A DNA stretch of 64,000 bases from a virus. Shown piece after piece: positions 48,694 to 64,000 of the stretch. The stretch is taken from UHGV virus genome UHGV-0144373; one strand, given 5' to 3'. The notes below the pieces were generated by a model. It was given only the letters and a program-made list of their open reading frames with translations, did no database searches and was not told the DNA's origin. How positions within the stretch are numbered: the stretch's first letter is position 1; every line of letters starts with the position of its first letter. Both the position numbers and the translations under genes were made by a program.

Positions 48694-48770
48694 TAGTCCA
48701 AGTAGCTTATATGGTTAAAGCGCGTGTCTGAAAAACATGAGAAGAGGGTTCAAATCCCACTGGACTACCA
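48694..48770 (+). tRNA. tRNA-Phe (anticodon GAA)
   Basis: D-stem GCTT/AAGC, anticodon stem CGTGT/ACATG, loop CTGAAAA, T-loop TTCAAAT; exact 5' boundary ambiguous. Confidence 0.5.
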
Positions 48771-49523: not shown

Positions 49524-49616
49524 GGAAGATTAACCCTAAAAGGTAAGGGAGCAGTTTGCTAAACTGCCAGTAGCTGAGAAATCGGTGTACCAGTTCAAGT
49601 CTGGTATCTTCCTCCA
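49524..49616 (+). tRNA. tRNA-Ser (anticodon GCT), long variable arm
   Basis: Acceptor GGAAGAT/ATCTTCC, anticodon stem GCAGT/ACTGC, loop TTGCTAA, 21-nt variable arm, T-arm ACCAG-TTCAAGT-CTGGT, CCA. Confidence 0.6.
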
Positions 49617-58868: not shown

Positions 58869-60221
58869 ATGTGGAATCCAATTGTTAATGTAGATATTAC
58901 ATTGAACACCGCAGGAACTACAAGAGAAGGTTTTGGTTTGCCACTATTCTTAGCTTCAACAGATAACTTTGAAGAAAGAGTTCGTGGCTACACTTCCTTA
59001 ACTGAAGTTGCTGAAGATTTCGATGAGAGGTCTGCTGCATATAAGGCTGCTAAACAACTTTGGAGTCAGACTCCTAAAGTAACTCAGCTTTATATTGGTA
59101 GACGTGCTATGCAGTACACTGTATCAATTCCTAATGCCGTTGCTGAAAGTACAGACTACTCAATTACTGTAGCTGTTGGCGGTGGAATTTCTCAACCATA
59201 CCAGTACACATCAAAAAACTCAGATACTGCTGAGAAAGTTTTGCAACAGTTTAAAACACAGATTGAAGCTGACCCAACAATCAAAGATAAGGTTTCTGTG
59301 AACGTAACTGGTAGTGGTGCTTCTGCCACAATGATTATTACCAAAGCTGGTGATAATGACTTTGTGAAAGTAACAACTACAGCACAGACTGTATATATTG
59401 CAAGTACAACTGCTGATACAGCATCAACTGCTCTGGCAGCTATCGAAGCTTACTCTACTGACTGGTATTTCATTGCAGCAGAAGACAGAACGCAACAGTT
59501 TGTCTTAGCAATGGCTTCTGAGATTCAGGCTCGTAAGAAAATCTTCTTTACGGCTAACTCCGATGTAACAGCCCTACAAGGTACAGAGTTAGCCAGCGCA
59601 AATGATGTTCCAGCACAGCTTGCTAAGAGCATGTACACCCGTACAGTTTGCTTGTGGCATCACACAGCAGCAGAAGATTATCCAGAAATGGCATACATTG
59701 CTTATGGTGCTCCATACGATGCAGGTTCAATTGCTTGGGGCAATGCTCAACTAACTGGTGTAGCTGCTTCTCTACAGCCAGCTAATAAGAGACCTCTGAC
59801 AAGTATTCAGAAGTCAGCTTTAGATGCACGTCACTGTAACTTTATTGACCTTGATGGTGGTGTTCCAGTGGTTCGTAGAGGGATTACTTCTGGTGGGGAA
59901 TGGATTGATATCATCCGTGGTGTTGACTGGTTAGAATCAGACCTGAAAACTTCTCTGAGAGACTTGCTAATTAATCAGAAGGGTGGTAAGATTACTTATG
60001 ATGATACTGGTATTACCCGTATTCGTCAAGTCATTGAAACCTCTCTGCAAAGAGCAGTCAACAGAAACTTCCTGTCATCTTACACAGTTAATGTTCCTAA
60101 AGCCTCTCAAGTTGCTTTGGCAGACAAGAAAGCACGTATCCTGAAAGACGTTACCTTCGCAGGTGTCTTAGCAGGGGCTATCTTGGATGTTGACTTGAAA
60201 GGTACAGTGGCTTACGAATAA
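58869..60221 (+). CDS. tail sheath protein (putative)
   Basis: 450 aa, followed by a 148-aa tube-sized protein, chaperone pair and tape measure: myovirus-type order. Confidence 0.45.
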   Translation: MWNPIVNVDITLNTAGTTREGFGLPLFLASTDNFEERVRGYTSLTEVAEDFDERSAAYKAAKQLWSQTPKVTQLYIGRRAMQYTVSIPNAVAESTDYSITVAVGGGISQPYQYTSKNSDTAEKVLQQFKTQIEADPTIKDKVSVNVTGSGASATMIITKAGDNDFVKVTTTAQTVYIASTTADTASTALAAIEAYSTDWYFIAAEDRTQQFVLAMASEIQARKKIFFTANSDVTALQGTELASANDVPAQLAKSMYTRTVCLWHHTAAEDYPEMAYIAYGAPYDAGSIAWGNAQLTGVAASLQPANKRPLTSIQKSALDARHCNFIDLDGGVPVVRRGITSGGEWIDIIRGVDWLESDLKTSLRDLLINQKGGKITYDDTGITRIRQVIETSLQRAVNRNFLSSYTVNVPKASQVALADKKARILKDVTFAGVLAGAILDVDLKGTVAYE

Positions 60222-60236
60222 TAGAGGTAAATTGGA

Positions 60237-60683
60237 ATGGCTATGTATCAGCAATATTCCCCTAAAGACGTTGTATGTAGCTGGAATGGTATTGCCATTG
60301 AAGGCTTTGCCCCAGATTCATTCTTGCGTCTACAGAGAACATCACCGCTTGTGACACCAGTTGTTGGTGCAGGTGGTCAAGTTGCTCTGACAAGAAATGC
60401 AGACAAGACAGGTACTATTGAGATTGAGTTAATGCAGACTTCTCTCTCTAACCAGATGCTTTCTGCAATTCAAGCTAAACAAGACAATATGGAACTTGAA
60501 GAAGATATCTCTTCTAACTTCGTAATCTACGACCCATCAGGCTCTGTTCTGGCAACTGGTATTAATGCTTGGTTGCAGGAATTACCACAGATTGAACTTG
60601 GTCGTGACCAGAACTCTAAAACTTGGATTTTTGGTTGTGAGAAGCTAGACTACACTTCTACAATTCCAGCGTCAAGTGTTTAA
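60237..60683 (+). CDS. tail tube protein (putative)
   Basis: 148 aa; AGAGGTAAA SD; synteny. Confidence 0.45.
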   Translation: MAMYQQYSPKDVVCSWNGIAIEGFAPDSFLRLQRTSPLVTPVVGAGGQVALTRNADKTGTIEIELMQTSLSNQMLSAIQAKQDNMELEEDISSNFVIYDPSGSVLATGINAWLQELPQIELGRDQNSKTWIFGCEKLDYTSTIPASSV

Positions 60684-60756
60684 TAAATCCTATAAGGGGG
60701 AGACTTTAAAAGGTCTTCCCCTTTTTTGTTTCTTTTAAAAGTATTAAGGAATCACA

Positions 60757-61155
60757 ATGAAAACAGAATCTAGAGTAATTAATGGTAAGAAAGTGAATAT
60801 CATTCTGCTTGGGGCAAGAGATGGTATTAGGATGTCTATGAAGTTGGGTAAAATTGTTGTTCCAACTTTTGCACAGATGCTGTCAAGTCTGACTGACAAG
60901 GGTAAGAAAGAAGCTCCAATGGTTCCATTTAAAGAACTTGTTGAAGCTTGTTTTGACAGAATTGAAGAAATTAACCTTGAAGAAATGGCTACCCTGTTAT
61001 TTCAAGGGGCAACTGTTGATGACTTCCCACTTAATATTGATACGTACTTCCAAGCAAACTACGGTGAGTTTATTGATTACTTAGCATTTGCGCTGGAGGC
61101 AAACTTCGGAAGTTTTTTCGAAGCAAGCATTTTCAAAAGCCTAACTTCTCAGTAA
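60757..61155 (+). CDS. tail assembly chaperone (G-like)
   Basis: 132 aa immediately upstream of tape measure; slippery heptamer TTTTTTC near the 3' end. Confidence 0.5.
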   Translation: MKTESRVINGKKVNIILLGARDGIRMSMKLGKIVVPTFAQMLSSLTDKGKKEAPMVPFKELVEACFDRIEEINLEEMATLLFQGATVDDFPLNIDTYFQANYGEFIDYLAFALEANFGSFFEASIFKSLTSQ

Positions 61156-61157
61156 AC

Positions 61158-61396
61158 ATGGGTAACACTCTACAGACACCACTAACTGATGCTGCTGTAG
61201 AGGCAACCTATGAAGAAGCAGACGAGATGAAATTTGTGCTTGCTATTTATGGTATGGAAGGGTGTAAAGAAACACTTGACCAACTCTTTGCTATGACATT
61301 CTCTGATTTATTATCATTGAGACAATTTCTTGAGATTCAGAGGTCGTATAAAGAGGAAATTGCTTACAACGAACTTAGAAGAGCAGGAAAAATGTA

Positions 61397-61397
<1 letters not shown>
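61158..61397 (+). CDS. tail assembly chaperone -1 frame extension (T-like)
   Basis: ORF in the -1 frame relative to 60757-61155; frame open from the slippery site at 61113-61119 through to 61397. Confidence 0.45.

Positions 61398-64000
<2,603 letters not shown>

Follow-up and report, generated by a model that had tools for sequence, protein, structure and literature searches.

How is the second of two overlapping reading frames, lying between the tail tube and tape measure genes of a Felix O1-like phage, brought to expression? The stretch of DNA that raises this question (hereafter the window; 64,000 nt of UHGV virus genome UHGV-0144373) belongs to a Felixounavirus. Over the 961 bases that surround the site, identity is 99.1% to Enterobacteria phage KhF3 and 95-99% to about 210 Felix O1-like phages. 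At this locus a programmed -1 frameshift very probably allows two tail assembly chaperones, one short and one long, to be made from the same start codon. The frameshift itself is almost certainly genuine, being a very well supported prediction from sequence, and its basis is directly observed: the geometry of the frames, the homology of the proteins, and the conservation of both the site and the -1 ORF.

The genes follow the order sheath, tube, chaperone (G), -1 ORF (T) and tape measure. The tail sheath gene (58869-60221) encodes a protein of 450 aa with matches to DUF3383 and PHROG 205. The tail tube gene (60237-60683, + strand; Pfam KPP10_Orf10, PHROG 280) marks the upstream edge of the conserved arrangement, and the tape measure protein gene (61397-63607, + strand; Pfam TMP_3, PHROG 4036) follows the T frame. 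The zero-frame chaperone gene, an analogue of gpG, occupies 60757-61155 (+ strand) and encodes 132 aa. Its product matches the Pfam family PF21822, Phage_TAC_15 (E = 5e-19; 69.5 bits against a cut-off of 22) and PHROG 1613 (E = 3e-48), and for the -1 ORF the match is to PHROG 4963 (E = 3e-55), "tail assembly chaperone". The gene identities that were assumed in the preliminary description, tail assembly chaperone and tape measure, are borne out by these Pfam and PHROG matches. A sequence search of the PDB with the fusion returned no related solved structure. Between the tail tube and chaperone genes lies a strong rho-independent terminator (60694-60733, + strand), formed by a 13-bp stem and a following TTTTTGTTTCT; the KhF3 record annotates it as such. 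Its effect would be that the chaperone and tape measure genes are transcribed less than those for sheath and tube.

The chaperone gene starts with ATG 60757, preceded at a distance of 6 nt by an AAGGA Shine-Dalgarno sequence (60746-60750), and ends with TAA at 61153-61155; ATG 61158 comes 2 nt later. The slippery heptamer T TTT TTC is found at 61113-61119 (+ strand). The codons at this place start at 61111 (AGT), 61114 (TTT) and 61117 (TTC) and specify Ser119, Phe120 and Phe121, which means that the heptamer, read in the zero frame, has the form X XXY YYZ. ORF 60757-61155 holds no other in-frame heptamer of this kind. The final -1-frame stop 5' of it is TGA at 61074; from 61077 the -1 frame is open as far as TAA 61395-61397 and takes in ORF 61158-61397. 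Both frames are open over the 26 codons of the overlap at 61077-61155 (+ strand). After the shift, the -1-frame segment (the T part; 61119-61397, + strand) would comprise 92 codons and a stop, with ORF 61158-61397 contained in it. The predicted coding region of the G-T fusion (60757-61397, + strand) is 641 nt long, one base (61119) being read twice. The predicted junction peptide is ...ANFGSFFRSKHFQ... (...ANFGSFFRSKHFQKPNF...), with the -1-frame reading Arg-Ser-Lys-His-Phe-Gln-... A +1 or -2 shift is ruled out, the +1 frame being full of stops (61142, 61163 and beyond).

These results agree closely with the preliminary description. The coordinates and the register that it gave for the heptamer are exact, the -1 frame that it claimed to be open from the heptamer to 61397 is open throughout 61077-61397, and the fusion, there estimated at about 210 aa, computes to 213 aa. 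Its placement of the T frame directly upstream of the tape measure gene also holds, as the stop of the -1 ORF overlaps the tape measure ATG by one base (TAATG). Judged by the criteria for G/GT frameshifts (Xu, Hendrix and Duda 2004), the locus has overlapping ORFs between the tube and tape measure genes, a -1 frame that stays open past the end of G, and a zero-frame X XXY YYZ heptamer inside the overlap. The second ORF is also without independent translation signals, though ATG 61158 leaves room for reinitiation.

The chance rate of such sites was estimated from in-frame X XXY YYZ heptamers in the 67 long ORFs of the window, where they occur at 0.0048 per codon. The probability of at least one in-frame heptamer in an overlap of 26 codons is P = 0.12. 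In-frame TTTTTTC occurs only once among the same 67 ORFs, at this site. The heptamer by itself is weak evidence, not significant at that P value, and the significance of the site comes from its conservation and context.

To assess conservation, the locus was collected from GenBank phages and IMG/VR contigs. Part of the loci were fetched with a peptide pattern, the NYG motif, that lies outside the site, and the conservation result is therefore not circular. The resulting 13 lineages, five groups of Ounavirinae among them, include Felixounavirus, SUSP-like phages, the locus L028, Mooglevirus, Pectobacterium phage Arno18, a Hafnia phage, Kolesnikvirus (phiEa104), the uncultured IMG/VR contigs L037 and L038, Shandongvirus H101, Vequintavirinae phage UPEC06 and Certrevirus CR3. 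In all of them T TTT TTC or T TTT TTT (T TTT TTY) stands in the zero frame on homologous x-Phe-Phe codons, over a range of protein identity from 99% down to 28%, and a -1 ORF of 97-130 aa extends from the site almost to the tape measure gene (13/13). The T run has six residues here and seven in L037, L038 and H101. The preliminary description had held that absence of the heptamer from otherwise syntenic relatives would speak against its claim; all relatives examined that share at least 28% identity have it, the exception being L039 at 25%. In this GC-rich contig the homologous position (1549-1557) reads GAC CTT TTT ACC, with no canonical heptamer, yet its -1 frame contains no stop for 138 codons. 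The sequence GAC CTT TTT could be a non-canonical shift site, or the site could have been lost. Taken over these lineages, one slippery site appears to be fixed across the whole Phage_TAC_15 family, a modest addition to what is known.

The codon-level test was made on 17 residues that are both invariant and degenerate in 8 lineages. Ser119 is encoded by AGT in 8/8 lineages, a codon that accounts for 18% of Ser codons in the window, and Phe120 by TTT, likewise in all eight; Phe121 is TTC or TTT. The other invariant degenerate residues vary synonymously in 13 of 14 cases, and synonymous sites are frozen only at the heptamer. Where lineages have Cys or Gly before Phe-Phe, the codon still ends in T (TGT, GGT). 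Indels in the linker between lineages are all multiples of 3.

Megablast comparison of the window with Erwinia phages gave a sole alignment, 61102-61142, at 92.7% identity. This conserved block of 41 nt was considered as an RNA element beyond coding and rejected. Dual coding suffices as an explanation, because after the heptamer every base is codon position 1 or 2 in one of the two translated frames; the block differs in non-Ounavirinae relatives. Several further observations concern the surroundings of the site. The three bases before the T run (61110-61112 here) are AAG in 10 of the 13 lineages and xTG or AGG in the others, and the Gly or Ser codon in front (GGA/TCA) ends in A in all 8 lineages compared; the invariant A, or AAG, may represent an E-site context effect. 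The 70 kb IMG/VR contig L037, from a distant relative, carries two more in-frame heptamers at 1857-1866, G GGA AAG and A AAG GGT, 3-6 nt 3' of T TTT TTT, which may be alternative shift sites. In phiEa104 (L002 1-630; NC_015292 35347-36706) the tail sheath, one gene here, is annotated in the RefSeq record as two adjacent CDSs that are 4 nt apart. The two-part annotation may stem from a sequencing error or reflect genuine splitting or recoding.

A downstream stimulatory hairpin, which the preliminary description had marked as worth searching for, is supported neither by folding of single sequences nor by folding of alignments. For the window and three relatives, the 60-90 nt 3' of the heptamer fold no better than their shuffles (z = +0.9 and +1.2), and RNAalifold on 7 lineages gives -1.29 kcal/mol and no covariation. 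A stable stem-loop of the dnaX type was not found 5-9 nt after the heptamer, and an Rfam scan of 60600-61600 returned chance-level matches only (E about 0.75). Folding of 121 nt gives z = -2.3, with a core stem of 61168-61175 paired with 61195-61202. We rejected this stem as a classical stimulator, as it begins 48 nt after the heptamer, which is too far. The stem (61168-61202, + strand) has 8 perfect base pairs (CTCTACAG / CTGTAGAG) and spans the codons for LQTPLTDAAVE. At the homologous place SUSP-like phages and Mooglevirus have another GC-rich hairpin (CAGACCCC...GGGGCTG), with no covariation support.

On the 5' side, an internal Shine-Dalgarno-like sequence, GGAGG, is found at 61095-61099 (+ strand). 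Its spacer of 13 nt to the heptamer falls within the 9-14 nt that is the effective Shine-Dalgarno spacing for stimulation of -1 shifts, as in dnaX (PMC5009743). A similar motif (GGAGG, AAGGAG, TAAGG/AGGGAG or AGGTGA) precedes the heptamer by 10-14 nt in 10/13 lineages, and the background of such 5-mers at that spacing is 0.8% of window positions. The Hafnia, Erwinia and CR3 lineages have no Shine-Dalgarno-like motif. The codon usage of the window would give GGAGG from Leu-Glu-Ala by chance codon choice in about 10% of cases. On account of this chance level and of the three lineages that lack the motif, we keep GGAGG as a candidate 5' stimulator only.

The phage also has a cluster of 25 tRNA genes that includes tRNA-Phe(GAA) and tRNA-Ser(GCU) (48695-48770 and 49524-49616, + strand). 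The former decodes both slippery codons and the latter the AGT just before them. We speculate, with more doubt than confidence, that U UUU UUY was fixed before the split of Ounavirinae, Vequintavirinae, Certrevirus and Shandongvirus, that shifting is driven by an internal Shine-Dalgarno sequence 10-14 nt upstream and not by 3' structure, and that the phage tRNA-Phe(GAA) and tRNA-Ser(GCU) might tune the shift. If true, this would be a structure-free chaperone frameshift, stimulated by rRNA pairing, across a large group of myoviruses.

The T frame might instead be a separate gene of 79 aa, translated from ATG 61158 by termination and reinitiation after the G stop at 61153-61155, with a functionless heptamer. 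In favour of this reading, the ATG is placed 2 nt after TAA, a comparable ATG is present in SUSP-like and Mooglevirus phages, and two separate CDSs are annotated in Felix O1, KhF3, radambza, BPS15S6 and Sf15. However, ATG 61158 has no Shine-Dalgarno sequence, and in phiEa104 the -1 frame has no ATG, GTG or TTG for 55 codons after the heptamer, a stretch in which conserved T residues (TEAAV, KFALYLYG) fall. In the Hafnia phage the first candidate start (GTG, L003 1702) is already inside the conserved T region. A separate gene would also explain neither the absence of -1-frame stops all the way back to the heptamer in 13/13 lineages nor the synonymous freezing of the heptamer, and we regard it as improbable. 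The ATG without a Shine-Dalgarno sequence, the start gap in phiEa104 and the linker indels in multiples of 3 together argue that the T frame is entered from the heptamer, possibly with some extra reinitiation at ATG 61158 in this phage.

The T run itself suggests two other readings. RNA polymerase could slip on it and add one U in some transcripts, from which the fusion would be made by normal translation. The site is indeed a homopolymeric run, T6 here and T7 in the three lineages named above, and in lambda a few per cent of fusion product is enough (PMC5009743). For productive transcriptional slippage in bacteria, however, the runs described have about 9 A or T (PMC5009743), and 6-7 is short by comparison. 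What the lineages conserve is the position of the heptamer in the zero frame (X at codon position 3, Z = C or T), a feature that bears on re-pairing of tRNAs and not on slippage of polymerase; polymerase slippage is accordingly very improbable. Least credible of all, and only marginally worth considering, is that the heptamer is coincidental and that the hairpin and T run at 61093-61119 form an internal intrinsic terminator or a pause site. A consensus scan does find 61093-61109 plus AAGTTTTTTC to be terminator-like, and the chance expectation for the heptamer is 0.12, but the scan of the region gave 2 such matches against 1.1 expected. The stem has 6 pairs, 2 of them G-U (-6.5 kcal/mol, z = -0.5). 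In 6 of 7 lineages it does no better than shuffled sequence, and its shape is not conserved; a terminator within the chaperone gene would moreover cut off the tape measure gene too. We rejected a terminator at 61093-61109, since the hairpin is weak, non-conserved and made from Glu and Phe codons, the GGAGG region pairing weakly with the Phe-Gly codons before the T run.

Under the programmed -1 frameshift, ribosomes would start at ATG 60757 and most would end at TAA 61153, releasing the chaperone of 132 aa. A minority would shift with two Phe-tRNAs (anticodon GAA) on UUU in the P site and UUC in the A site of U UUU UUC; both tRNAs would slip one base in the 5' direction and re-pair with UUU UUU. 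Translation in the -1 frame would then continue to TAA 61395 and yield the G-T fusion of 213 aa. By analogy with gpG/gpGT of lambda and E/E+E' of P2, the shared N-terminal part would coat the tape measure protein and the T part would recruit the tail tube protein, with a fixed low rate of shifting that would set the ratio of short product to fusion. The slippage itself, its efficiency, the two domain roles and stimulation by GGAGG are what we infer from the observed features. According to the Atkins review, in E. coli the synthetic heptamers U UUU UUA and U UUU UUU shift far less readily than A AAA AAG. This result counts against the frameshift reading, as do the 12% chance expectation of the heptamer, the unsupported 3' structure and the contig L039.

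The finding is already known and ordinary, a standard frameshift of a tail chaperone. Genome papers on Moogle and Mijalis state that these phages have a tape measure chaperone with a translational frameshift (PMC4319497, PMC5543628), and the same fusion is deposited as a joined CDS in Salmonella phage Mushroom (CPT_Mushroom69/70; KP143762, Felixounavirus), where CPT_Mushroom69 is 641 nt, and likewise in Citrobacter phage Maleficent. These deposited joined annotations are predictions. In the literature we found no demonstration at the protein level in Felix O1-like phages, only prediction-based statements in genome announcements. Public annotation is inconsistent: in most Felixounavirus records (Felix O1, KhF3, radambza, BPS15S6, Sf15) the T part is a stand-alone gene or a hypothetical protein, and only the CPT-tagged records, Mushroom and Maleficent, join it to the chaperone. 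The main value of the result is for annotation, as Felixounavirus records, including the Felix O1 reference and KhF3, should carry the joined CDS. Phages of this kind serve in biocontrol of Salmonella and E. coli and in phage synthesis in cell-free systems, in which tail assembly could be limited by the ratio of the chaperones. The modest additions made here are a site that appears fixed across the family, the finding of no 3' structure, and a 5' Shine-Dalgarno candidate that can be tested; family-wide fixation and the Shine-Dalgarno candidate leave the general understanding of such frameshifts unchanged.

Among the known systems, E. coli dnaX resembles the present site in its internal Shine-Dalgarno-like sequence 9-14 nt 5' of the heptamer (PMC5009743), the distance here being 13 nt. 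It differs in having A AAA AAG and a strong 3' stem-loop, with about 50% of ribosomes shifting, whereas here no 3' stem-loop was found and the role of the Shine-Dalgarno-like sequence is that of a candidate.

The slippery sequence of lambda is G GGA AAG. The gpG/gpGT system was reportedly studied by Levin, Hendrix and Casjens in 1993 and by Xu, Hendrix and Duda in 2004, 2013 and 2014. As in the window, lambda has two overlapping ORFs between the major tail and tape measure genes, and the -1 shift takes place shortly before the first ORF ends. The long product of lambda is the minority species, and neither product is in the virion (PMC5009743). In contrast to lambda, which is a siphovirus, the phage described here has a contractile tail and a U-rich heptamer, and the Pfam TAC_15 match suggests a relationship at the family level only.

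The E/E+E' system of P2 is said to have been described by Christie et al. in 2002. P2 is likewise a myovirus with a T-run heptamer and no 3' hairpin found; its -1 shift occurs at TTTTTTG, with no detectable downstream hairpin (PMC3091744). It differs from the present system in belonging to another chaperone family, in its smaller proteins (91 and 142 aa), and in the Z base, which is G in P2 and C or T here.

The closest counterparts are Mushroom, whose orthologue has 97% protein identity and a joined CDS of the same 641-nt length, and the Mooglevirus phages Maleficent, Moogle and Mijalis, with 75-76% protein identity (Mijalis; Maleficent fusion). In Mushroom and Mooglevirus the TTTTTTC heptamer, its flanks and the GGAGG sequence are identical to those of the window, and there is no material difference between these systems and the one described here.
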